From NCBI GenBank assembly GCA_964643665.1, contig CAZXTK010000001.1, forward strand, positions 1-38,384: DNA of 38,384 nucleotides, given 5' to 3'. The notes under the pieces are model-generated. The model searched no databases. It worked only from the letters and a program-made list of their open reading frames with translations, and was not told the origin of the DNA. Of this stretch, positions 1 through 31,919 are shown piece by piece. This DNA is from an uncultured Campylobacterales bacterium. Lineage in GTDB: Bacteria; Campylobacterota; Campylobacteria; Campylobacterales; CAZXTK01. The translations under genes were made by a program, and so were the position numbers. Every line of letters begins with the position of its first letter. The stretch's first letter is position 1.

Positions 1-3000
1 TTAATATTTGTATCATTAAATGCAATATTACTCACATAAGGCAATAGAGTATCTAACATAACATTTATAAGAGTGCTATTGTCTGCAAGATATGTATTAT
101 TATAATAGTCTTTAATGCTATCTTGTAAAACACTCAAAGTGATATTGTTTTTAGATGCAATATTATCATCAACTCTAAAATTAAATGTTATATTTTTTGC
201 CAAAATAGCAACACTTGAACTTGTAGCACCATCAAAAGATAAATTATCAGATAAAGTTATAATATTAGATGATCCATTTTGATAAATATCTTCATCAAAT
301 TCTATATAAGCAGTTACGATATCACCATATCTAATTACATAATTTGATAAGCTTATACCAACTATGATTGGTGCTTTTGTATCAATATCATATGTTGCAA
401 TAAAACTAACATTTGCTCTATTGCCTAATCTATCGCTCCATGCCGTATTTGAAATAGAGATATTAGAATTATTAGTCTCTATGCCAGACCTTGGAGAATA
501 CCCAGTAGTATACACCCTATTCATATCATTAGTAGCAAACTGTGTTGGTGGTGCAGGGAAGGTTAAATTATATATTAATGAACCATTTGCATTTGTCATA
601 TTAATATCACTAAGTTCAAAATTAGTAATAGGCTCACTAAATTCAAATTTAAGCATATAATCTCCATTAACAACATTAAACGGATAAGCATTATTTAATG
701 TAACATTTAATTTAGGGGCTAATGTATCAAACATAAAATCAATTCTGCTAGCATTTTCGATAAACAAGTTACCTCGCATATCAAATATTGCATCTGCTAA
801 AGCTATGCCTTTTGCATCTGTTCTGTTTGCCAACAATGATACATTTGCAACTCTCTCATCTATAGATGCATTTGGCGTAATAGTAAAATACCATACACTT
901 GTATTACTTGCACTTATAGGAGCAAAGTTGCTTATCGCTGCTTGGTTTTCGCTAAATTTGATATTTGCATCTTTATTTAATGCCAAATTAGACATATTTT
1001 CACTAAACACAAGTGTGATGTTAGCACTCTCGCCAACAAGTAGGGTGGTTTGATTTGCACTAAAACTAACTAAAGTGGGAGCTAATGTATCTATTGTTAA
1101 ATTGCCAAATAGCTGTGTTTGTGGTTGACCTAGAGTCACATTAAATTCATCCATAATAGTTGCACTTGTGTTATCTACAAGAATAGTTACATTATCAAGC
1201 AATGGTATGTTTTCATCTGGTGTATAAATAAATGTCCAGTTATTAGAGTAGTTAGCACCATTGATAACATCTATATTCTCAGCTGATAAATTGCTAAGTG
1301 TTCCATTTGTCATTGTTATGTTATTTAATGACACGCCTCTAACATAAGTGTTGAATATCACATTCATTTTGGCACTGTCGCCCACAATTAATTTTGTAGT
1401 ATTCATTGTGATATTAACAACTTTTGGTGTAATACTTGAGATTAAATATTCACCACTTGTAGTAGCTGATGAAGCTCTGTTGCCGTATTTATCTGTCCAA
1501 GTAGTATTTAAGACATTAATAAACTGATGTCTTTGAACAATATCACTTTTAGGCGTAAGTGTTGCAGTAAAATATGACCCATTTACATCTGTAAAGTTTG
1601 TTAGAGCTACTGCCTTATTATCAAATGCGTAAGTTGAGTTATAAACAATATCTGATGTGTTAAATAATAAAACATCATCTCCACCATTAATATTTATATC
1701 AAACTTACTTACATTTTCATTAAATGAAAAAGTAACATTACTTGTTGCATTCTCACCCAATATAGATAACGAACTCATATCAATATCTAAAGTAGGCAAA
1801 AGAGTGTCTATAATAATACTTACATTTATTTCTTGCTCTTTAATTGTATTATTTCGCTCATCTGTAATAGAGCTTACATCAAAAGTTGTAAAATACTCAA
1901 AAGATATATTTTCATATGGAACATATGTAAATTCCCAAGTATCACTAAGAGTGCTTAGTGTGCCTGGGGAGACAAGTGTATATTGACCATGTGTAATATT
2001 AAATGCATTTAGCCTAGATGGCTCACTAAATGTCATTTTAATGGTTGCTTGTGTGCCTGCTAATAATAAATTCATATTGCTTGTATTATACAAAGTCGTA
2101 TTTGTTGGGGTAACAAAATACAATTCATCTATCTTTGGTTTTAATGTATCTGTTGTAATTGCATTAATCACCCAAGTGCTATTATCTGTATATTTATTTT
2201 GATATTTATCAACAATAGAGCCATTAGATAATATTGTTATATTTAAAGTTGTTAATAAACTAATATTGTCTTGTGGTGTCCATACAGCACTATATAGTCG
2301 TGGTGTTATAGCTACCACATTGCTAACTTTTCCAAATGGTGTAAAGAAATCACTCGCATTCACATTGCTAACATTTTCACTAAATGTAACATTAAATGAA
2401 GTGTTTTCACCAAAAATTATAAGGTTTCTTTCCACACTAACATCTGTAATACTTGGTGGCAGAGTGTCTATGGCAATACTTGGCGTAGAAGAGTTAACAA
2501 AAGGAGCATTACCTAATTTGTCTAACCATTTATTTGTTGTGATATTTAAAATATTAACATGGTTTTCGATATTTAAAAAAGCACTAAATTCTGCCCTAAA
2601 AGTATTATTAGCAACCACAAGAGTCATAGGAGTAGTAAAAGCACCGACAGATTGATTAAAATCAAAATCAGCCACACTTAAAGTGCTTACGTCAATATTA
2701 TCACTAAATAAAAGTGAAATATTTGTGCTTATGTTATCAACTGTAAGTGTAGCTCTTGATACATTCAATGTTAGAGTTGGTCTTAGAGTATCAACTTCTA
2801 TGCTTACATTTTTATAAAATGTGTCTCTAAATGTGTTATTCCTCATATCTAAAATATCATTGCTTGATTGTATAGTAAAAGGAACATTGGACATATAATC
2901 AATATCATCAATTGGCGTATATACTATCTCCCATGTATCAGTCATTGAAGAAGAAGATGTTACCAACACCACACTACCATTTATGGCGGATATATCCGCT

Positions 3001-6000
3001 GCCTTAAGCCCTGTTACATTTTCACTAAATGTTATAATAAATGTTTCGTTTTCATGATAAATAATCTTATTATCAGTAGCTGGGGTTAAGGATATATTAA
3101 TAACCATAGGCAATAATGTATCCACACTAACAGCATCTAATGCTATATTTTGATTAGGCTCTAAAGGGTTTTGATAGTCATCTTCTATATTATTTGTATT
3201 ATTTATTATCACATCAATAGAAGTATCAAAACTTATATTCATATATGGTGTAAAATTAGCTACCCAAATACTAGAATTAGTTGCATTTACAACGATATTG
3301 TCTATGACGCCATTATTAGAGTATATATTAGCATCTGTTATATTATTAACACTCTCACTAAATGTAAGATACAATTTACTTACTTGTGGTGCTTTATTAT
3401 TAGCTTGAACTTTTAAATATGTTTTTTCTAAAGACACATTAAGAAGTTTTGGTTGCTTTGTATCTATGACAGGTATTGTAACACTTGAATTAACCAATGC
3501 CTCATTTAAAATTAAATCACTCCATAATGCTTTATCAAATGTCATAATGTGGTTTTTAGTTTCTGTATCAGCATTTGGAGTATAAATTGTTGTATATACA
3601 AATGGTTGAGTAGATGACTTAACAAGTGCAGAGAAAGAACCAAATTGTGTGTTAAATGCCGTTGTAATATCTGTTATATCAAAGTCTTTTGGCTCTTCAT
3701 TGAATATAAATGTAAGTAGCGCTTCTTGACCTTTGATAACAATAGTGTCATTAGTGGTTATATTCAATGATGGTGGGAGCGTATCTATCCATATTGGCAA
3801 TCTAAATGTTTGTGTTTTAACAAATTCATTATTTGTTTGATCTTTAATTGTGCTAGTTTTGCTTAAATTAATATCAATAAAGCTTGCATTTGGCAATAAA
3901 TCAAAAGCTGTAAATGTAGCTGTCCAATTATATGTAACTGGTGGTTGTGCAAATGGGCTATATGGAGTTGGAACTGCGCCACCAACAAAGCTGATATTGC
4001 TTAATAATCCGCCAGAAACATTTATCTCGCCGTTTGCATAGGCTGTATCCAATCCTATTACATATGGTTTATTAAATTGAATTTTAATTTGTGTTGCATT
4101 ATTTGTGATATTTAACACCGATTCATCAAGAGTAATATTTACAATCTTAGGAAATGCGGAATCTACAACATAATTATTAGAAACAGACTTAAATACAGGT
4201 GTATTGCCTATTAAGTCTGTCCAAGTAGAATTTAATAACACACTAATATTGCCTCTTACCAACAGCTCATCTGCTGATCTAAATTTAGTTGTATATAATG
4301 ATGCATTTACAACTGTCCAATCAGCGCCACCTAACCAGCTATCATTTTCGTGAGACAAATCAAACCATACATCATTTGCATCAAAATCTTTTACTGCTTC
4401 ATTGAATGTAAAGTTAACATCTGCGTATGATCTATAACCAATAATTGTTGGTGCTAATGTGATATCTAAACTTGGTCTAAATGTATCAATCCACATACCA
4501 GCCATAGTTATGTTGTTTGGTATAAATGTGTTATTAAACTGATCTAAAATAGTGCTTGTTTTAGAATTATCAATCATAAATGTAACTTCTGTGTCATTTG
4601 TGATATTAACATTTGGAACAAACACAGCAGTCCAGTTGTGGTAATATTTATTACCATTTACAGTTTTAACATCAACAACATCTCCGTTTAGAGTTTTTAT
4701 ATTGCTCTCATCAAAGTTGGTTACATTTTCTCTAAAAATAAAATAAACAGTTGAGTTTGCACCATATTTAATAGTTTTGTTAGTCACAATCACTGCATCA
4801 AAAGTAGGCAATATGGTGTCTATTTCATAATTATAAGAATACGCTGTATCTTGCATATAGTTATATCTTGTATCAAGAACAGAAGATGTGTTTATATAAA
4901 TCTTATTATATAAATCTTCCACACCATTTATAGCTGTGAAGTTCACTTGATATGTATTAGTTCTTGGTGTTTTTACAGAATTAGCATCTAAGGTGATATT
5001 ATCAATATGCAATGCTTTTTCAATATCAAACCCAATAAGGGGTTCTGTTAACTCAACAGTTATAACGCCCTTGTTGGTGTCGCTTTGTGCTAGGCTCAAT
5101 ACTGACCTGCTAAGCGTGATTGTAACATTTGGTCGCACGGTATCTACTACATAATTAGGCGATGCGCTCTCAGCTGTGTCATTAGTGTTGGTAGATAAAT
5201 CTGCCCAAGATGTATTAGCTACTTTTACGCTTGAGAATAAATCTTCTGTGTTATTATTTGCCAGAATAACAACACTATATGCATCTCTATCCCACTGAGC
5301 GCCTGTATATGTAGAGTTGATTATCCGTTTAAATGTATTAGGAACTATTGTTACATTATTATCAAGAATGATATCACTCTCAGTGAAGTTGCTTGCATCA
5401 TTTGCTAGTCCTATTCTTTTGTTAAATGAGAATGTAACAGTTGCATTTGTATGGTTATCTAAGTTTAATAAATCATACTCCATAGTTATATTTAAATGTG
5501 GTGCAACAGTGTCTATACTAAAATTCCCACTATAAGAGCCATTATCTGGATATTGATTATGTAGAGCATACCAACTAGTTTTATCAACAAATAAGCGCCT
5601 ACTTAACGCATAGGTATTAGCTTTAGGTGTTATTTTGTATTGCAGGTTTTTTGGGTTTGTTGTTATGTCTATTGGAGTCCAAGTAAGATTATCATCAAAT
5701 TGAACATCAGAAGCTACATTAAACCCAATAGGCTCTTTACTAAACGAAAAATTCACATACCCTACTTCGCCCACTGTTAAATACTGCCCTGTTCCATCTC
5801 CATATTGTTTTAACAAAGCAGAATCTTCCACTTCATCAACATAAGTTATATTTACATATGGTGGAATTGAATCTATCTCGAAATTAACACTAGTAGAAGA
5901 GTTAGCAGCCCTGTTTAATGTCCAACCCACCCATGTGTCTTTTGATAGTGTAATATTATTAACTCTTTGATATATGTATTGTGTTGTAGCAAAAGTAACA

Positions 6001-8330
6001 GCATAAATAGAACCATTATATGCTCCTACATTACTTTGAACCAATCTTAAATCATGCAATGTTCCATTTGCATGGCTTACATCAATATCTGATAATGTAA
6101 ATGCTTTATCTGCGCCCAAAGAAATATCTGTTATAGGGGCCTGTGTGAATTGCAAATAGATTGTTACATTTTCATGTGTGCCAATAAAAGTTTGCTCATT
6201 GCCATTTGTATCATTTTGAATAACTATTTTAACTTCTGGTCGTTTTGTATTTATATAAAAAGTATTAGAATAATCATATGTGGTAGTAGCATATGGTTTA
6301 TTGCCTGCTAAATCAGTCCAATTATTAGAATTTAAAGAGATATTAACTGCTTGTCTAAATGTATCATTTTTAGTATAAATATTTCCTTTCCATTTCTTCA
6401 TATCAGGAGTTAGTAGCGTTAATGCATTTTGTGGTGTAATTCTTAAATTATTAGGCAATGTAACATTATCGATACTTAAATTAACTGCCTCGGTAAAAGT
6501 ATAATTTACCTCTCCTACCATATTAGGGTCAGTTATTAAATTGCCTGCTCTAAGATCTATTGGTGCTACATTAATTGTTGCATTTGGTCGCACAGTGTCT
6601 ATAATAAAATTATTAGAAAATACATTTTGAGATAATGGGTTACCTGCGATATCCTCAAGCGATGAAGTATCAAACATAATTGTATTATTTGGTATTTCTT
6701 GTTTGGCAAATGAATTAGCAATAACCTGAGCAGTATAATTTAATGAATTTGTATTTGGAACTAATGACCAATTTGCAATGGCTGCATTTGGTGTTGTTGA
6801 ATTTTTGAGCAATTTAATTGGTTCTGAAAATGCAAAATTAATATTGCTTAAATTATCATCTATGCTTAAATATAAATCATTTACGGTTATATTAACAGTA
6901 GGAGCTATGGTATCTTTAATGGCGTTTTGAGCATCGCTAGTATAAACACCGCCTCTAGTGGTCAAACTTACATTAAAAACTACATATGCATTAACACTTG
7001 TATAATCTCTAAAAGCACTTAAATCTAAATTGCTAAACTCAATATTGCCCGAGCCATATTGATTGGTTGTTGTATTAACCGCAACGCTATAAAGCACCGC
7101 TGTTTTGCTTACTGTCTTTGGGACACCTTGTTGCGTAACCAATAAATTTACTGTTGTTCCGTTTTTTTCAACTGGAATATTTTCAACATACCCTGTTATA
7201 TTATAATTAGCTTTGCCCTCATTATTGATATAAAGCAAGGCTGTTGGATCAGCTGGATTTACAACAACAGATGGAAAATGTGGGTCATAAAGAGCAGTTA
7301 TTGCAAAAGTAGCAGGGTTATTGAAACTATCTTTAATGCTAACATTAATCGTTGTTAAATTTACACTAACTGAGTTATTGTTTATTAAACTCGTAATATC
7401 AATATCCATTTGCCATTTGCCATTTGTATTTGCATTATCAACAGGATTTGCATCTACAATTGCATTATTTGTTAATCGTATAGGTGGATTTCCACTATCA
7501 GAGTCAATAAACACATCAAAAGTAGCACCAAAATCAATAAAATCGGTTACCCCTCTTAAAGTTGCTCTTTTAGCATCCACAATTGTAACAATATTATCAA
7601 CAGAAATTGATGTTATATTAATTTGTGCTAAAGTATCTTTTGTTATATCCATTTGATATGTTGCAATATTTTTTGCCACATCTAATATTGTAAATTTAGC
7701 TGTATAAACGCCATCTTGTGTAAATGCTGTATCATTAAAGTCAATATATGTAACCCATGTTCCATCAGATTGCAATGAAACATTTTTACTAAATACTAAT
7801 GTCCCATCTTGATAAACAAAATCAACAGTTAAATTTTGACTAGACTCTACATCTGTCGTATCACCTGATATTAAAATAGGTCCAGAAGCAACATCTGCTT
7901 TATTTATGCCATTTGGTATTGATGTATTTAAACCAGTAATATCATTAGCATGTATTTTGGCAGTTACATCTATGGTTACATTCTTAAAAACACTTCTAAC
8001 ATTGCCAGCTAAATCGGTTACATTAAACTTTATGGTAAAGTTTCGTGTTTTATTATTATCATTCACAACTTTGCTCAATAAATCGGTTATAGTATACGAC
8101 CAGTTTTCATTGTTTTGGTCAATGCCGGCCACCAAAGAATAATCATATAACCCAGTAATTGTTACATTAGGGTTAAACACGCCTTTATAAAATGAGCCAT
8201 TATTAAAAACCTTATCTACTGCTCCGCTTGTAGTTCCGTTTATAATAACATTAGAAAGTTCATACTGATTTATATAATTATCACCAGAGATTGTAGAAAT
8301 TGTTATATTTGGTTTAATAGTGTCTAAATA
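1..8330 (-). repeat. Array of at least 24 tandem bacterial Ig-like (BIg) repeats with D-T-x-x-P boundaries inside the giant ORF. It continues past the window edge.
   Basis: I located the boundary motif [IV]-D-[TS]-x-x-P-x-[LIV]-x-[IV]-[TS] in frame. The first base of the D (or N/S) codon falls at 8324, 6914, 6599, 6251, 5873, 5513, 5144, 4820, 4487, 4163, 3785, 3464, 3122, 2792, 2468, 2150, 1808, 1439, 1091, 728, 383 and 53. Spacing from 6914 downward is 315-381 nt. Each unit also carries F-[ST]-F/E-[SN]-E-x-[VI]-x-x-F...D-I, W/Y..F/Y-T-P and a terminal D..G-N, as in BIg domains of giant adhesins. Confidence 0.8.
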
Positions 8331-11300
8331 AAAAACACCAAGCGTTCCCGTATCAATAAATGTGCCGTCTGGTTTAGCAAAAAACAATGACATATTATTT
8401 GCACCTTCATATAATCTTATTCCTGCAAAATGAATTGGAGATATAGCAGTGCTTCCCACTTCTGAAAAATGTTCATTTTGCGGATCAGAACTTAATCCGT
8501 TAACGCCCACTTTAAAATGTAAATATCTAGGCATTTTGGATGTTGTCATATTTACATAAACAAGTTTGGTTATATTATCTTGTGAGCTATATCCCGTATC
8601 CCAATCGCTATCTAAGAAAATCTTTCCAAAAAAGATATCAACAACCTCTTGTATTTCAGCTACGGTGTCATATTTTTCCCCTCTTTGTAAAGCGCTAAGA
8701 GATGATAATTGGGTATCCATAAACTGAAGCATAGGAACAACAATACTATCAATAACCCTAGTAATTCCTAAATTAGCAAAGTCCTTTGCTGAAATATTTG
8801 ATGTATTAATATTTGTATCAGCTAAAGAAAATTTTGTAAATTTAATAGAGGACTCCATTATATTACTAACTTTTTGACATGTATCTTTTGTGGTGGCTTT
8901 TTGAGTAAGTATTACATCTTCAAATAAATGTTGAGCATGTGTTGAATATGAACTTGGAAATTGTGCTGCAATACCCAAACTAGCAAGCTCACTATCGCTT
9001 GGCATAGCACTGCCTTCATATATATTAGCAACAATAGTATATAAATCTTGCACCGTATCCAAATTAGGGACATCAGATTTTTCTATACAATGATTTACAT
9101 TAGGTAATGTGCCCACGGTATCAACTAAATAGCCATCAAAACTTCTTGCGATATTAGGATCTTTTGGTCCAATATAAACTGAGGACAAATTCTCTTCAGT
9201 AATATTAGATCTTGCACTACCGCTAGCACCATCAGCTCTTTTTTGAATGGCATCTAAAACACTAGCAATAGTTTGAGACATATTGTTCAATGCGGACTTG
9301 TTGTTTAATTCACTCATAGGGTAAGTGTTATCAATCATCAAAATAAAAGCGTTTGTATTATTATGCTCAATTGGAGGGTTAAGGTCTAAAACATTTATAA
9401 TATCATAATCAATAACGCCGGCAAAACCACTTAAATCATCTTTGTAACTTAAATTTGCTGCAACCGAATCTACCAAAGCAGTTGCTACTTGTATAAAGTC
9501 TAATCGCACTTTAGAATCTTGATAAAAAGATCTATTATCATCTTTATCATCATTTACAATTGAGTTAAATAATGCTAAAGAATCCCCTTTAACAAATGGC
9601 AAAGCTAATACATCTAACCCTGCTTCATCTATAGATTTTGAAGTATTATCTAAAATAAGTATCTGATCTACTACTGCTTGCAATGAATCTGCATTTTCTA
9701 CTGATGGTACATCTAAATTAGGATTATACAAATAACTACTCGTAGAGTTTGCAACAATCTCCCTAGGCCAATTACCAAATTCTTCAATTCCTATATCTTT
9801 ATAGTCATCTAAAACCACTGGTGAACCATTATTGGCTCTTTTGGCTGCTACTACTTTGGCAAGAGCATCAAATTGCAATTTGGCAAACTTAGTTAAATTA
9901 TCATAATGCACAATCGATGCGAATCTGTGTTTATAAATTACAAAACCATATCCCCTAAGATTTTCTTGAACAATAGTTGGTGTAATGGCTATATCATATA
10001 AAGAACTAACATTAAGCCCGTCTAAATTTCTATCAAAAACAGGAAATCGTGCTATCGTATGTAGCTGTGTGTTTATATTGAATATATTTTGTAATTTATC
10101 ATATGTATCTTTGTTAGACTCTGAGAGTTCATCTAAAAAAGAATTAAATAACAACATTTCATATGTTGTATCATTTGCAAATGCAAAATGTGCTGGTGGC
10201 CTATCAAAACCAAATTTACTATGTATAATATTCTCACTTAAAGACTCTGCAATATAAGGAGCTTGTATAGATTGAACAATGCGAGCAGAATGCACATAAT
10301 CAAATATGCCCTGACTACTATTTACATAATCACCAATAATAAAATCACTGTTTAAATAATCATTAACAAAATCAACTGTTTTAAGAGTAATATTAAAATT
10401 ACCCACATGTTGATAGTCCTCTAATATCAATCTACGATCTGCATCATTTGCATTAGCTGCTTTTACAAATTTATCTAAGGATATTAATAAAAAATTATGA
10501 ATATCATTAAGTTTAGTCCATGTGTTTACTTCATCTGCACCCTTACGGGCAATCAGTAAAATTATAGAAGGCATATTTTCAGGGGCAACAGTGCTATCAA
10601 GCATTAATTTATTTAAATCATCTGCTGTTAATGTTGTTGCATTGGTTAAATTTGCACCATTTGCTAAATTTTGCACCTTATCAACACTATCTCTAATTAC
10701 TTTTACAACATCATATGTATAATTTGCTCTTTGTATATCATCTCCACCATCATTTAAAACAGTATTAAACAAGGACATCTTATCATCAGTATCAAGTGGC
10801 TCTATACCAGCCACGCTCATATCGCTATCAGTTATATTCGTTTGATTGTTAATCATAAGATAAATTGCAGATGCAAAGGTTTTAATCTTGCTCCAATCAT
10901 CAACCGATGCCCTATCAATTAAAGGAGAAAACAAATATGTGCTAAGCAAATTGGCTTTTGGGTGTAGTATTCCAGCACTTGTATAAAATATATCTTCTAA
11001 AAGTCTTGGCTCAACATTTCCTGAGCTTCTACCCGCACTAAGTTTAACAAGGTCTAAATCTATTGTTGTTAAATTAGTAGCCAAATCGTTCAATTCTGCC
11101 ATAGTTTGGACATTAGCTAAACCGGCATTTTTAACTCTGTGCAAAAAAGCAAGAGTATTTGGATTTGTAATTGCATCATTAAAATGAAAATAATCCAAAG
11201 AAGTGGCATTAAATCTTGAATGAACATCTTCTGGCTCAGCATCTCCGCTAGCAACTTGCATTAGGGGCTCAACTTGTGTAATTATTTTGCCAACTTCTTG

Positions 11301-14300
11301 ATATGTATCTTTATAGCGCACATCATTGAATGTGTTTAAGACATCATTAATTAATTTTAATTTTTCAGCTTGGTTTATGCCGCTTAAAGCACCAAACCCT
11401 AACTTGCCAATTGCATCTTCTGTTATATTCTTATTATTATCAATAATATTTGAAATATGATCAACAATAATTTGAACCTTTAAGGGTGTATCAGTTTGAT
11501 TGCCTTGTATAAAAGCATTATTTAAATAAGACTCCATATGCGCTGGTGAAATGCCAACAAGATCTATTCCTGCTTTTTGATAAATAGCAGCTGTTGGAAA
11601 TGAAAATGTAGCAGTATTTCGCTCAGCTACTACTTTAATAATATCAAGTGATTGTTGAATGTCTGATATTAAAGCCTCCAATTCTACTTTTGTGTCAAAA
11701 TCCTTACCTACACCACCTGAAAGCCTATATAAAAAAGAGCCAACAAAATCATTAGTAATAGGGGTATCAAGCTCTAATAAATTAAGCTCATTAACGCTTA
11801 GAGCATATTTACCGTTACTATCTCTTGGCAACAAAGAGCCGGTTACTATCTTATGAATTTTGGCTACAACTTGAAAGATTGTATTAATTTTATCATATCT
11901 ATCTTTGCTTCTTTGTGTCTGATAATCATTTAAAATATCAGAAAAAAGATTAGCTCCATCTTGTGATGTATCTGATATCGGGATAAAGCGCAAGAGTTTT
12001 ATATTTCTCTTATTAATGGTGTTATTATTTGTAGGTATTGTATTGATAATATTTACAATATCTTGCAATGGTTTTTGTTTAGGGATATGAGTTTCATTTA
12101 TATCACCATCCAAAAACGAATTAACAAGCGCCAAATGCTTCACATTGACAATACCGGCTAATGAATAATCATTTAATGATAATGTTATTAAAGATATATT
12201 AGCTGTTGCTGCTTGTGCAATTGTCAACATTTTGTCATTCATAGCCTTAGAAATATCATCTAATTTTTTCATAGTATTTGCATCTTGTGGGTCATATGCC
12301 TTAAGTGCATACAAAAATGCATCCTTATTTAGTGCATCTACTGGTGGATTAATTTGAAGCTGGGCAAAATCTGCACCTGTGACATTAGCATCTTCTGGCT
12401 CAATATCGCCATTAGCAACACCAATAATATTTGCTATTGTATTTGCTATTTTAGCAACCTTATCATATGTATTTTTAAGAGTTTCGTTTGCATTGAGACG
12501 ATTAATTGCACTATTAAATAAAGATTGCTTATTGATTGAATCAATACCGCCTATTCCTAAGTTGCTTATATTTTGTATGCTTAAAGGTTCTCCATTTTGA
12601 ATCATAACAACACTATCTACTAAACCTTGTAGTTTATTAAGTGTGCGTACCGCATTCCCGTCAATTGGGTTATTATTTAAATATGTAGCTACTTTAGGGA
12701 GCAAGGCTGCTGTCATATTATCTATTTGAGCATCTTCAAAATCTGCTACAACCAATTTATCAGCACTATTTAGCTCAGCTGCATCTATAATCTTATTTGC
12801 TGCAATAAGTAATTGACTATAAGCTGCATTTAACTTGGGCTTGGTGTTATATGAAGATGGGCTATTAGCTTTTCTTATTAGCTTTTCTAAATATGGAATG
12901 TGGACATCTATCACTTCTGGCTTAATGCGAATTTTATGCCAATTTTCCACACTAACACTACCCGCATGCAAAGGTGGGGTGGCCATACTTATTATATTTA
13001 AAGAAGTTTTATATATGTTTTTTATTTTTTCATAAGTATTTTTATCCTCAATTGGTAAAGAATTTATAATAGAATTAAAAAGCGATAACTCATCTGAAGT
13101 TATTGCAACTATGTTTGGGGCTATACCAAGCCTTTTAAGATCATTGGATGTAACATTTTTAGTGGTATTTAAAATATCTCTGATAGAGTCAGCTATCGCA
13201 AAAACCTTATCAGGAGTAGAAGTTCTAGCGCCATCAATGTAATAATTATCTAAAAATGAATTAAAAATAGGCGCTTGGGTTTTAATGCCCAAATTAGTAT
13301 AGTCTTTTTGCGATAACCCCTCATTTGTTGCATTATGTGTCGCCGTATTGCTTTCTGCATACTTGGATATATTAATTAACCCATCAACAAAATCATTATA
13401 TGCTTTTTGCAAGCTATCTATATCAGTAATTCCAGGTCGAGGAAGAAGTCTTAACCTTGGCACAAAATAACCTAAGTTCACATCAGATATTTTTGGATTA
13501 AGCCCCAAAGCATCTAAATCGCTGGCTGTTAATGCACCTAAGAAACTAGATTCTTGTTGAAGTATCGCTCCTTCTAATCTATTTACTGAATAAATAATAT
13601 CTCGCAATTTATCTTTGGTTAAAGTATTAGCCGGGGTTTTTAAAATAATAGAATTTACCATATCTACAGGAAGAACATATGGGTAAATATTAGCTTTTGG
13701 ATAAACATTTAATGACTGATAATCATCTAATGTAGGGATGTTTTTCCCTGCTACCTTGCCTCTTTTTTGTGCATATCTTATAACATCTAAAACAGATTCT
13801 ACCGATAAAGCAGAAGCAACATCAGCAGCATCAGCAGTAGCTATATAATGCGAAGCATCACTTAAAACAACATCTCTAAGAGAAGCAGGATCAACACCAG
13901 CATCAAGATAATCGCCTGCATTTAACGAAGGTGGCTTAACACCATCTGTCGCAGCATACGAAACAATATTCTTTATGTTTTTGGGTTCTGTAGAAACACT
14001 AAATGTTAATGGGTCACCACCAACATATACAACAACATTGTATTTCATTCCAGCATCAGGAGGAGCTTTATAAAAAATAGGCAAGACGCTATCCCCTGGA
14101 GGAAGAGTATAAGTAGAGAGTCTTTTATTGCCTACAAATCCATGCTTAACATATACCTTAACTTCTCCACTTACACCCTTAACCACAATTCGTCCAGCCA
14201 ATCCCTCAGAGCTTGGTTGTAAATTTACAAAATTATTTAATAGACCATGCTTACTCTCATACCTGCCTAATGGTAGAAATGTTAAATTAGCATCAGCAGT

Positions 14301-18958: not shown

Positions 18959-20863
18959 TTATTGGGCTTCTAAAACGACTACATTGATTAATGGGAATTT
19001 ATTAAATTTTCTACCACAATATCTTTTAAATACTTTTTTAAACTCTTCTGAAAGAGTAAGTGGGTTTTTCATCACTGCTGGTTTAGCGCTCTCTAAACAA
19101 CTGCTAAGTAAACCTAAAGTATCTTTTATCATTATCTCTTCTTGTTTATTGTCTGTTAATCCATTTGTTTGGATATGTGGTTTGCCCGCAAAAGAGGCAG
19201 AACCAAAATCTACCGTGGCTACACAAAAAATAGCCCCATCTATACTCATTCTTTGTCTATCAAATATTATTTTATGTGGTATTTTTCTGTTTTTTTGGTT
19301 ATCTACGAATACTTTACCTGATCTAACTGTTTTTATTTTTTTAAGCTGAGTAGGAGAGATCTCTATTTGCTCACCTGCATGGAGTGCGTGAATATTTCGC
19401 TTTTGGATTCCGCAGTCAATGCCTGTTTGGGCATGTCTTAGCACATGGTTATATTCCCCGTGAATTGGCATAAAATATTTTGGCTTGCAAAGTCGTATCA
19501 TAAGTTTTTGCTCTTCTATGGATGCATGCCCAGAAACATGTATATCTGGATATGAAGTATGAGTAGCCACTTTTGCATCACATTTCATAAGCTCATTTAA
19601 AAGTTTAGACACACTTCCTTCGTTTCCGGGGATTGGTTTTGAGCTTAGAATTATCAAATCTTCTGGCTTAATTTTTATATGTCTATGCTCTTGAATGGCC
19701 ATTCTATAAAGAGCTGCGTTATTTTCGCCTTGTGAGCCTGTTGTTACAATAAACACCTCTTTGTCTAATAATTTATCAATAGAATGTGCATCTATAAAAT
19801 GTTTTCTATCATATTTTACATAGCCCAAATCTATTGCTAGGTTTGTATTTTTTTCTATACTTCTACCAATAAGGCATATTTTTCTGCCTTCTTGTATAGC
19901 AATATCTATGCCCTGAACCAATCTATGCAAGTTGGAGCTAAAAGTGGACATCAATATTCTACCTTTTGCGTTTCTTATTAATCTCTCTAAAGTTGGTCCT
20001 ACTGTTTTTTCGCTTCTTGTGATTCCGCCTCCATGTGAGTTTGTGCTATCGCTGAGCAATGCTAAAACGCCTTTTTCTCCATAATATGCAAATCTATGCA
20101 AATCAGTTGGATAATTATCTACTGGCGTATGATCTATTTTAAAATCACCTGTGTGGATGATTGTGCCTGCTTTTGTAGTAATGGCAAGAGAGCTACAATC
20201 AACAATAGAATGTGTTATATGCATCCACTCTACTTCGAACTGATCAATCTTTATTGCTTTTCTTTTTTCTACACTTCTAAAATAACTTTTAAGATGCTTC
20301 ATTTTATTCTCATCAAACTTCGCGCCTATCATAGCAAGTGGTAGCGGTGAGCCATAAATTGGAACTTGAATTTCCTTAAACAAATAAACCATCGCGCCTA
20401 TATGATCTTCGTGTGCGTGTGTTATTAAAATGGCTTTTATTTTAGAGCGTATGGTTCTTAGATATGTAAAATCAGGTATCAAAATATCTATACCAAACCC
20501 GCTCTCATCAGGGAAGTTCATACCACCATCTACAATCACGGCGCTATCTTCTGTTTCAATAACCATGATGTTTCCACCAATTTCATCTAGCCCACCTATT
20601 GGAGTAATTCTGACTTTGTTAGTGTTTTTTGTGTCAATCTTTGGTGTCAATCTTTGTTTTTGAATCTCTTCATTTGCCTCGAAGCTCTTTTTTAAATCAT
20701 TATTCCAGCCCTTGCCAGATGTTGGAACTGGTTTTTTCTTAGATACGGTTTTGGCATTTGGGTTGTTTGATTGCCCTTTTGCGCCATTATTATTTTTATT
20801 TTGTGGTTTATCTTCATTTGGTTTTTTGTCATCTGTAATTTTGCTAAATATCTTTGTTATCAA
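18959..20863 (-). CDS. rnj: Ribonuclease J (beta-CASP metallo-beta-lactamase) with a Lys/Asn/Pro-rich N-terminal extension.
   Basis: The motifs are HAHEDHIG, GDFKID and HVSGHAS. The first 85 aa or so are low-complexity, as in Helicobacter and Campylobacter RNase J. The track start at 20863 is a TTG. The gene is adjacent to ksgA, as I recall for H. pylori HP1430/HP1431. Confidence 0.9.
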   Translation of the reverse strand: MITKIFSKITDDKKPNEDKPQNKNNNGAKGQSNNPNAKTVSKKKPVPTSGKGWNNDLKKSFEANEEIQKQRLTPKIDTKNTNKVRITPIGGLDEIGGNIMVIETEDSAVIVDGGMNFPDESGFGIDILIPDFTYLRTIRSKIKAILITHAHEDHIGAMVYLFKEIQVPIYGSPLPLAMIGAKFDENKMKHLKSYFRSVEKRKAIKIDQFEVEWMHITHSIVDCSSLAITTKAGTIIHTGDFKIDHTPVDNYPTDLHRFAYYGEKGVLALLSDSTNSHGGGITRSEKTVGPTLERLIRNAKGRILMSTFSSNLHRLVQGIDIAIQEGRKICLIGRSIEKNTNLAIDLGYVKYDRKHFIDAHSIDKLLDKEVFIVTTGSQGENNAALYRMAIQEHRHIKIKPEDLIILSSKPIPGNEGSVSKLLNELMKCDAKVATHTSYPDIHVSGHASIEEQKLMIRLCKPKYFMPIHGEYNHVLRHAQTGIDCGIQKRNIHALHAGEQIEISPTQLKKIKTVRSGKVFVDNQKNRKIPHKIIFDRQRMSIDGAIFCVATVDFGSASFAGKPHIQTNGLTDNKQEEIMIKDTLGLLSSCLESAKPAVMKNPLTLSEEFKKVFKRYCGRKFNKFPLINVVVLEAQ

Positions 20864-21087
20864 TTTTTATCCTTTTTTAATTTTGTTTTTTTTATATTCA
20901 TTATGTTTTGATTTAAATTATTTTAAACTCTCTCCTTGTTTTAATTTTTAAAAATATACTTTTTTGTTTTTAATGATGCAATTTCTTAAACAAATTTACA
21001 TATTCAGCTGGTGTTATTTCATGAGAGCGGATACTCTCATTTAAAGCTATTTGCTTAAATATTTCTTTAATTTTTCCTAAATTATAC
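20771..21087. repeat. Copy 1 of a perfect 317-bp tandem direct duplication. It holds the functional rnj 5' end, the intergenic spacer and an orphan ksgA 3' fragment.
   Basis: Base-by-base comparison with 21088..21404 shows identity over all 317 nt. The unit starts with TTGCCCTTT. Confidence 0.9.
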
Positions 21088-21404
21088 TTGCCCTTTTGCG
21101 CCATTATTATTTTTATTTTGTGGTTTATCTTCATTTGGTTTTTTGTCATCTGTAATTTTGCTAAATATCTTTGTTATCAATTTTTATCCTTTTTTAATTT
21201 TGTTTTTTTTATATTCATTATGTTTTGATTTAAATTATTTTAAACTCTCTCCTTGTTTTAATTTTTAAAAATATACTTTTTTGTTTTTAATGATGCAATT
21301 TCTTAAACAAATTTACATATTCAGCTGGTGTTATTTCATGAGAGCGGATACTCTCATTTAAAGCTATTTGCTTAAATATTTCTTTAATTTTTCCTAAATT
21401 ATAC
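21088..21404. repeat. Copy 2 of the 317-bp tandem duplication. It holds an orphan rnj 5' fragment, the spacer and the functional ksgA 3' end.
   Basis: It is identical to 20771..21087. It is followed at 21405..21413 by a third copy of the 9-mer TTGCCCTTT, which marks the microhomology junction. Confidence 0.9.
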
Positions 21405-31034: not shown

Positions 31035-31919
31035 TTATTTTAACAAAACCCATATACCCTTATGTATATTTGATATTGCATATGTATCTTGTATTTTAAT
31101 ATATCTTGTATGTTTTGGTATTTTATAATAAAACACATTTCTTTGCCTAAAAGACTTTTTGTAGGCTAATTGATTTAAATCTTTATCATAAAAAACAACA
31201 AAAGCATACCACTTGTTAAAATAACTAATCCTTATTTGTTTTGCATCCGACACTCTTATTAAAATAGGCTCAAAATAAAACGGCAACCTTACTTTTTCGT
31301 AATTTGGAATAGATATGGCCTTGTCAATATACGAATATGTAAACTCTAATTCATAGGCAAAATGGCTACTTATAGAATCATCGGCTAAATTAGTAACTTT
31401 TGTTAATCTTGTTCCGCAAGATAATAATGCCTCATTAAAAGCTATGATGTCAAAATATTTTGTAGATTTAATGACAATATTCCACTCTAAAACATTATTT
31501 TTGATGTATTGAAAAGAGGTGGTAGTTAAAGAAACATATCCTATTTTAGTTAAAACATCTTTTAGGACTTTAAAATCTTTAAACGGTGATTGGGTTTTTA
31601 AAATAAAATCAATCTTTAATGTTTTTGATAATTTATTATCTTCCTTTAACAATGAATTATCATATAAAATTTTATACACCTTTGCATAATCTATATGATC
31701 TAATATATAAAATTTATTTTGTTTTTTGAATAAAAAGTTTATTAATTTTTTGTTTTTATTGTATTTGTTTTCGCCTATTATGTTTTTGATATTTGCAAAA
31801 AGGGGCGATAAGTTATTGGTTGTATTGGTTTGTATCTCGCTACAATGCCCTAAGGTGCTAAAAAAAATACTTACAAAAAGCACACATAGCATAAGCTTTA
31901 TTTTATTTATTATTTGCAT
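31035..31919 (-). CDS. Hypothetical secreted protein with a signal peptide and unknown function.
   Basis: The N-terminal hydrophobic segment is LMLCVLFVSIFFSTLGHCSEI. Its start overlaps the stop of the upstream TrmH-family gene by 10 nt (31910-31919), which suggests co-translation. I recognised no motif. Confidence 0.5.
   Translation of the reverse strand: MQIINKIKLMLCVLFVSIFFSTLGHCSEIQTNTTNNLSPLFANIKNIIGENKYNKNKKLINFLFKKQNKFYILDHIDYAKVYKILYDNSLLKEDNKLSKTLKIDFILKTQSPFKDFKVLKDVLTKIGYVSLTTTSFQYIKNNVLEWNIVIKSTKYFDIIAFNEALLSCGTRLTKVTNLADDSISSHFAYELEFTYSYIDKAISIPNYEKVRLPFYFEPILIRVSDAKQIRISYFNKWYAFVVFYDKDLNQLAYKKSFRQRNVFYYKIPKHTRYIKIQDTYAISNIHKGIWVLLK

Follow-up and report, generated by a model that had tools for sequence, protein, structure and literature searches.

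A giant lipoprotein-type precursor with helical and Ig-like repeat arrays encoded on an uncultured Campylobacterales contig

The Lig proteins of Leptospira are surface lipoproteins of about 1,200–1,900 aa, composed of Big_2 domains, a type of bacterial immunoglobulin-like (Ig-like) domain, with a distinct C-terminal part after the Ig array. Giant RTX adhesins of type I secretion systems (T1SS) carry no Sec signal and are anchored via the outer-membrane pore of the T1SS, and the rod of Ebh, from the Gram-positive Staphylococcus aureus, is a chain of FIVAR-GA helical modules. Type I, V or IX secretion is, to our knowledge, the route taken by almost all giant adhesins of diderm bacteria. Here we analyse a gene on contig CAZXTK010000001.1 of an uncultured Campylobacterales bacterium, the first part of which lies at 3–15080 on the minus strand of the window (the whole stretch of 38,384 nucleotides under study). 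Its product would belong to a kind already known, the giant bacterial Ig-repeat adhesin, with an anchoring most like that of Lig and a stalk most like those of RTX adhesins and Ebh. What is new is the scale of the lipoprotein-type precursor, an uncatalogued helical unit and N-terminal domain (N-domain), a candidate outer-membrane protein (OMP) partner, and the density of sequons, the N-X-S/T motifs of N-glycosylation.

Like LigA and LigB, the window protein is a presumed adhesin of a diderm bacterium, with a lipobox and a tandem array of bacterial Ig-like domains. It differs from them in its length of at least 5,198 aa, in its Big_12 domains (Big_2 gave no match in the giant protein at E <= 0.01), and in the helical array and N-domain that are placed between anchor and Ig rod. 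With the giant RTX adhesins of the LapA, SiiE, MpIBP and BapA type it has in common its size class, acidity and divergent Ig-like extender arrays, and four T1SS-like giants (P0004, P0012, P0026 and P0031) contain arrays homologous to its helical supermodule; in contrast to these adhesins, however, it has a lipoprotein signal, is enriched in sequons and has no T1SS genes upstream. In Ebh, too, small helical bundles are strung into the stalk of a giant surface protein, but the window protein gives no FIVAR or GA match in Pfam, and its units of about 60 aa are grouped in triplets of about 190 aa.

Two further comparisons concern the base of the protein rather than its stalk. PgcA of Geobacter sulfurreducens likewise carries a lipobox at its N-terminus, and the structure solved for the domain after it (9i0d) is the best PDB match to our model of the N-domain. 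PgcA is an extracellular lipoprotein that needs its lipobox to leave the periplasm and loses its N-terminal part by later cleavage (PMC10570954, PMC5732950). The two proteins share no detectable sequence similarity, and PgcA is a cytochrome of about 57 kDa, whereas the window protein, with its three cysteines, is devoid of haem motifs. Slam-dependent surface lipoproteins of Neisseria (TbpB, fHbp) are comparable in gene order, since here too an OMP gene directly precedes the lipoprotein gene, an arrangement repeated in a distant homologue. The neighbour in the window, however, is no DUF560/TPR protein but combines SH3-like domains with a small barrel of the OMP_b-brl type: a search of the partner protein for DUF560 (Slam) gave no match, with OMP_b-brl and a weak SH3_3 as the sole hits.

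The giant gene and its product

Window 3–15080 (minus strand) is confirmed as the first part of a single, real, intact chromosomal gene. The reverse complement stays open for 5,026 codons from the ATG at 15080 onwards; the gene is complete at its 5' end, and at its 3' end it leaves the window at base 3. At the composition of this DNA (about 31% GC), stops are expected in 8% of random codons and the probability of 5,026 codons without one is about 1e-183; the longest open stretch in all other frames of the 38-kb window is 635 aa. A first-pass annotation, made by eye from the letters, had already claimed an uninterrupted frame from ATG 15080 off the left end of the window, as well as a mass above 0.5 MDa, and both claims hold. 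The mass computed for the visible part is 553 kDa, its isoelectric point is 4.6, and it contains three cysteines in 5,026 aa, of which Cys34 is the first. That annotation was also right that the gene is missing from the track of open reading frames (ORFs), which for 1–15080 lists three plus-strand ORFs of 109–129 aa and no minus-strand ORF. The cause is a listing rule and not biology: by its own description the ORF lister leaves out ORFs that run off either end, and the giant gene is absent because it is truncated in this way. The gene covers 39% of the window, a share that can be lost from view in a track without end-truncated ORFs.

Mis-assembly and collapse of repeats had been named among the dangers to the claim, and on this point the gene stands up well. 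Just six DNA tandem repeats, of 13–27 nt, were found within it and none longer, and as the Ig repeats share about 21% identity on average and 37% at most, collapse or expansion of repeats is implausible. Exact-sequence lookup of the upstream gene's product found two sister contigs from other data sets, both collinear with the window and free of gaps: L001 (JGI 3300021792; 99.67% identity over window 5081–21036) and L002 (Logan SRR7168047; 99.86% over 8404–20837). Within the giant gene this indel-free agreement extends over 10 kb for L001 and 6.7 kb for L002, and the differences amount to 16 synonymous and 21 non-synonymous changes. As the gene call on L001, of 5,198 aa, still hits the contig end, the protein must be at least 5,198 aa long. 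Scans of metagenome and genome contigs with the last 300 aa, aimed at extending the gene to the left, gave no relative. The frame is unbroken in the window and in both sister assemblies, but not in L084, a 1.9-kb contig (JGI 3300021979) that is 93.8% identical: here a 1-nt deletion at window 13671 (GTTCTTCC to GTTCTCC, at about position 1801 of L084) shifts the frame at about codon 470 of the giant. The truncated copy is 461 aa long, and the database protein P0001 is that product.

The same annotation had proposed a lipoprotein signal, a rod of helical modules and a rod of Ig repeats in that order, and all three parts hold up. The signal peptide and lipobox occupy aa 1–34 (14979..15080, minus strand) and read MFILLKTITR-MLNIKRR-VALVGLNIFASIFF-LGC, that is, a basic n-region, a hydrophobic core or h-region, and a lipobox with Cys34 at +1, the predicted lipidated residue, followed by Ser at +2. 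The portion MLNIKRR/VALVGLNIFASIFF/L-G-C34 fits the PROSITE PS51257-type rule. An alternative start, M11, lies at 15050, and gene callers took either M1 (L001) or M11 (L084). Among homologues the lipobox Cys is invariant or nearly so, being conserved in at least 90% of sequences in alignment A3 and in all of those in A5. The precursor is of the lipoprotein type, and lipid anchoring of the mature protein would be expected from it.

The N-domain region that follows (aa 35–375; 13956..14978, minus strand) was delimited from an AlphaFold2 (AF2) model and from homologues, and has no Pfam match, even at E = 5. The Asn-rich giant protein swamps a word index, with the result that word-index searches with aa 1–2200, the last 400 aa and the N-domain alignment returned nothing or two short fragments, and an exhaustive HMMER search was required. 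With phmmer, aa 1–1200 gave 40 matches at E <= 1e-3 among 1.84e9 representative proteins, around 30 of which match aa ~20–260 alone, some reaching 455; a scan of metagenome contigs with the N-domain alignment found no relative. Of these ~30 proteins, nearly all with an intact N-terminus begin with a lipoprotein signal, with G/A-C after a hydrophobic stretch. They are 200–1,400 aa long and differ in their C-terminal parts: the shared N-domain is followed by a subtilase S8 domain in P0009, by Laminin_G/CBM in P0015, and by FISUMP-like domains in P0002, P0003 and P0008. Given these varied ends of extracellular type, the N-domain behaves as a generic base for such lipoproteins.

In the AF2 model, built with the 19 sequences of A3, aa 45–270 form a beta-sandwich followed by a helical bundle (pLDDT ~83–97), and a second beta domain at aa ~295–365 is modelled with low confidence. 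The top PDB match of the model in Foldseek is 9i0d, the non-heme N-terminal domain of PgcA (E 6.7e-4, probability 1.0, TM score 0.43 on the target, rmsd 5.4 A), and the next fold matches are transthyretin-like sandwiches. Two family profiles of the N-domain do not detect PgcA by sequence.

The helical array (aa 376–2160; 8601..13955, minus strand), about 1,800 aa long, was defined with hand-seeded hidden Markov models (HMMs), alignment A2 and AF2. It consists of eight full supermodules and one partial (~8.5), each of 190–210 aa and comprising a triplet of diverged ~60-aa units; with the two extra units that lead the array, the total is about 27 units. The unit has the motif xxDYxxLGI...LFNSxLN...TYDKIxxI, and the three sub-units are related in register (hhalign E 3.8e-6, 5.8e-4 and 6.1e-4). 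Self-BLAST of the region shows no repeats, and the hand-seeded HMMs were needed to reveal them. When one supermodule was modelled by AF2 with seven paralogues as alignment, the result was all-alpha, with 8 helices (pLDDT 84.7, pTM 0.81). No Pfam family matches aa 1–2200, and the supermodule has no match in Pfam or NCBIfam and no sequence match in the PDB; PDB sequence searches with both protein halves and three profiles gave nothing meaningful, and the best match in a structure search of the PDB with the supermodule had E = 5. We conclude that the supermodule is an uncatalogued repeat family.

In a more regular form, DYxxAGVTGV...NLAAINSALNS...DTxAEIQALVDSY, the module builds long arrays in other giants. 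It is found in P0005, an Asn-rich fragment, and in very large proteins without a signal peptide (P0004, of 4,949 aa, P0007, P0012, P0026 and P0031), one of which, P0026 from Rhodoferax potami, is named by NCBI just as an 'Ig-like domain-containing protein'. In P0026 and P0012 the helical homologues stand alongside Ig domains (Big_13, Big_5, Ca_tandemer), and the C-terminal regions of P0004, P0012, P0026 and P0031 are Asp-rich and resemble Ca-binding regions. A scan of P0004 and P0031 against NCBIfam found zero families, so their assignment to the T1SS substrates rests on a reading of their sequences. As a separate observation, P0004, P0012, P0026 and P0031, all proteobacterial, are made mostly of the ~200-aa supermodule, which neither Pfam nor NCBIfam models. 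Neither the helical array nor the N-domain has a counterpart in Pfam, NCBIfam or the PDB, yet both recur in some very large bacterial proteins (up to 4,949 aa) among the matches of the exhaustive search, which makes them good targets for family definition and structure determination.

From the helical array the protein passes through a transition segment into about four divergent Ig-like domains (aa 2161–2722; 6915..8600, minus strand). These are recognised by sub-threshold matches to Pfam Big_3_2 (E 0.0013) and Big_13 (0.019) and to NCBIfam Ig_like_ice (0.006), and their 'DTxxP...' domain starts can be read by eye. The rest of the visible protein (3..6914, minus strand) consists of 20 Big_12 (PF19078) Ig-like domains at aa 2723–4996 and a 21st from aa ~5010. 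Pfam matches Big_12 in 12 tandem stretches (E 7.6e-99, 325.2 bits against a cut-off of 27), and an iterated in-protein HMM finds the 20 copies, with 21% mean pairwise identity and 37% at most. In total, at least 24 Ig-like domains are visible.

Sequons and the upstream candidate partner gene

Sequons were counted as N-X-S/T with X other than Pro, and their expected number was taken from composition-preserving shuffles. The whole protein has 199 against 88.9 expected (z 13.3), a 2.2-fold excess located in window 3–13955 (aa 376–5026) and strongest in 3–8600. Most of this lies in the Ig region (160 against 66.5, z 13.7), with a smaller part in the helical region (37 against 21.5, z 3.4) and none in the N-domain (2 against 3.0, z -0.6); the 21 other ORFs of the window, pooled, have 54 against 45 (z 1.4). 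The excess is specific for direction, the mirror motif S/T-X-N occurring 90 times where 89 are expected, and D-X-S/T, Q-X-S/T and N-X-A/G show no enrichment in the giant protein. The extended form D/E-X-N-X-S/T is present at 23 sites (z 4.4). In the 20 aligned Ig repeats, 119 sequons are spread over 50 columns, the commonest of which is filled in 9 of the 20, and this scatter means that most of them are not motifs inherited with the repeat. Asn-rich, low-GC relatives are enriched too (P0005 with z 6.3, P0030 with 4.8 and P0009 with 4.1), in contrast to the signal-less proteobacterial relatives P0004 (z -1.7), P0026 (-1.6) and P0031 (-1.4).

N-glycosylation of the PglB type takes place in the periplasm and is typical of Campylobacterota. 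Some bacterial PglB enzymes accept a minimal N-X-T motif (PMC4894442), and those of vent proteobacteria are reported to differ in sequon recognition, as cited in a passage of PMC6025236. The pattern of sequons suggests that the rod may be heavily N-glycosylated during its passage through the periplasm. The direction-specific excess predicts mass N-glycosylation in vent Campylobacterota.

Directly upstream of the giant gene lies a gene for a protein of 401 aa (15081..16286, minus strand), which we call the partner. It has a signal peptide and two SH3-like modules (CNKEGWCKL and CDKFGWCKL), each with the pattern C-x4-W-C-K-L, and its C-terminal part is a small outer-membrane beta-barrel of the OMP_b-brl type ending in VRYFF. 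In Pfam, OMP_b-brl scores 26.9 bits, just below the cut-off, and SH3_3 is weak. The TAG of the partner gene (15081–15083) directly abuts ATG 15080 in a shared frame, so that VRYFF is followed across the stop by MFILLK, and AAGG sits 12 nt upstream of this ATG, an arrangement that fits translational coupling. A scan of 14800–16600 found no terminator-like site.

A similar pair of genes is found on contig L083 (JGI 3300021980), where a 325-aa gene (205–1182) lies 18 nt upstream of P0019 (1200–2204), a distant N-domain lipoprotein that is 26% identical to the giant. The 325-aa product has a signal peptide, an SH3-like module (CDKWHWCKL) and a C-terminal barrel related to that of the partner (blastp E 3e-6 and 1e-5; phmmer 2e-6). 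The retention of adjacency at such divergence suggests that OMP and lipoprotein are a conserved functional pair. By standard barrel topology, SH3-like domains that precede an even-stranded barrel should be periplasmic, and since the barrel is too small for a channel, a docking or load-bearing role is favoured over that of a translocon.

On the other side of the partner, at 16386–17447 on the plus strand, is a divergently transcribed gene for a 353-aa protein, in which a PAS domain (aa 165–234) is the sole recognisable part. This gene adjoins the OMP gene in L001 and L002 as well, and its product is a possible regulator of the cassette.

Proposed function and alternative explanations

We consider it probable that the gene encodes a giant, acidic, lipid-anchored fibre of the cell surface, most likely an adhesin, with an OMP partner and a glycosylated stalk. 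The protein would be exported by Sec, acylated at Cys34 and then sorted to the outer membrane, consistent with the Ser at +2. The N-domain may act as a generic base or presentation module and, together with the presumably co-transcribed SH3-like barrel protein, may fix the base in the envelope, with the partner as a docking or load-bearing element of the giant lipoprotein. A long, stiff stalk, formed by the helical array followed by the Ig array, would project the distal C-terminal part far from the cell, and N-glycans added in the periplasm could shield this stalk. The surface location itself is a prediction. A lipid-anchored adhesin of more than 5,000 residues would raise the question of how such huge lipoproteins cross and hold the outer membrane, and the partner is a candidate to test in this respect.

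Several points weigh against this reading. We know of no route that takes lipoproteins above 0.5 MDa to the surface of a diderm, and an 8-stranded barrel cannot itself be the translocon. The conservation of the partner rests on one locus besides the window (n = 2). The C-terminus lies in neither the window nor any contig found, including the longest sister contig. As for glycosylation, sequon enrichment alone is no proof of it, and there is no pgl gene among the genes of the window. The resemblance to PgcA is moderate and has no support in sequence, which makes it a structural lead rather than an established homology. Finally, the frameshift in L084 may stem from faulty assembly, mark a pseudogene or represent on/off variation.

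A bolder version of the surface fibre can be formulated, in which the small-barrel OMP with its SH3-like domains and the N-domain are a new two-gene display cassette of Campylobacterota that exports and mechanically anchors lipoproteins of any size (here above 0.55 MDa), the rod is N-glycosylated at about 200 minimal N-X-S/T sites by a PglB of relaxed specificity, which would make this the most heavily N-glycosylated bacterial protein known, and the ~60-aa unit is a new family of rod domains shared with T1SS adhesins. Taken together, this combination of claims is unlikely to be correct in full.

It is quite unlikely that the protein instead stays within the envelope or coats the cell, as a periplasmic scaffold, sheath or S-layer-like protein whose lipid anchor would hold it to the inside of the outer membrane or which lies flat on the cell. 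By default, the Lol system leaves lipoproteins at the periplasmic face of the outer membrane, which would suit such a role, as would the periplasmic SH3-like domains of the partner OMP, and no machinery for surface exposure was found. However, judged from typical domain sizes, more than 24 Ig domains and ~1,800 aa of helical modules far exceed the width of the periplasm. Relatives of the N-domain also bear domains of extracellular type (subtilase, LamG/CBM, FISUMP), and the nearest structural analogue, PgcA, is extracellular.

The shared supermodules raise the further idea of a type-I-secreted giant adhesin of the LapA/RTX kind, in which the lipoprotein signal is irrelevant or serves as an N-terminal retention element. 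These supermodules are indeed common to very large signal-less proteins with Asp-rich, Ca-binding-like C-terminal regions, and the C-terminus of the window protein is outside the visible sequence. We nevertheless regard this as very unlikely, for T1SS substrates lack Sec signals, whereas the giant has one: a canonical n-region, h-region and lipobox with a conserved Cys, found here and in ~30 homologues of the N-domain. Moreover, none of the 22 ORFs of 15081–38384, the 23 kb upstream, is a gene for an ABC transporter, membrane fusion protein (MFP), TolC, LapG or LapD, and the enrichment in sequons is seen here but not in the signal-less homologues.

An origin of the long ORF in faulty assembly, be it a chimera or the collapse or expansion of repeats, is extremely unlikely, and so is a pseudogene in decay whose frame is open by chance in this contig, for while the metagenomic origin, the break of the frame in L084 and a perfect 300-nt duplication elsewhere in the window, maybe an artefact of assembly, could be cited for it, they are opposed by the stop-free length at 31% GC, the indel-free agreement of two other assemblies, the lack of DNA-level repetition and a domain structure that is coherent from end to end.

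Source and genomic context

The remaining 23 kb of the window contains genes for RNase J, KsgA, a PP-loop ATPase, HisF, RlmN, GltX and homoserine dehydrogenase, and further for a SpoU methylase, pseudouridine synthases and ribonucleotide reductase. These housekeeping neighbours place the giant gene on the chromosome. Searched against 185,579 species genomes, the RNase J finds its best matches, at 58–63% identity, in Arcobacteraceae and other metagenome-assembled genomes of Campylobacterota. The run that yielded L002, SRR7168047, is a metagenome of a deep-sea (below 3000 m) hydrothermal vent (PMC12202869). We conclude that the host is an uncultured, Arcobacteraceae-like member of the Campylobacterota from a deep-sea hydrothermal vent. 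Around RNase J orthologues of Campylobacterota, tblastn and profile HMMs were run on 80 loci (1.4 Mb) and detected neither the giant, the N-domain, the helical module and the OMP nor relatives of any of them, and the cassette is therefore not at the RNase J position in known relatives.

Scans of the window for tRNAs and Rfam families were empty. Between the genes for homoserine dehydrogenase and the SpoU methylase is an ORF of 294 aa (31035–31919, minus strand) without a Pfam match at E <= 0.01. The 300-nt duplication is a perfect direct repeat at 20771–21070 and 21088–21387, with 317 nt from start to start. The duplicated segment runs from the 3' end of ksgA across the intergenic region into the 5' end of the RNase J gene. 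L001 and L002 each stop inside copy 1, and the repeat stems either from a tandem duplication of very recent date or from faulty assembly.

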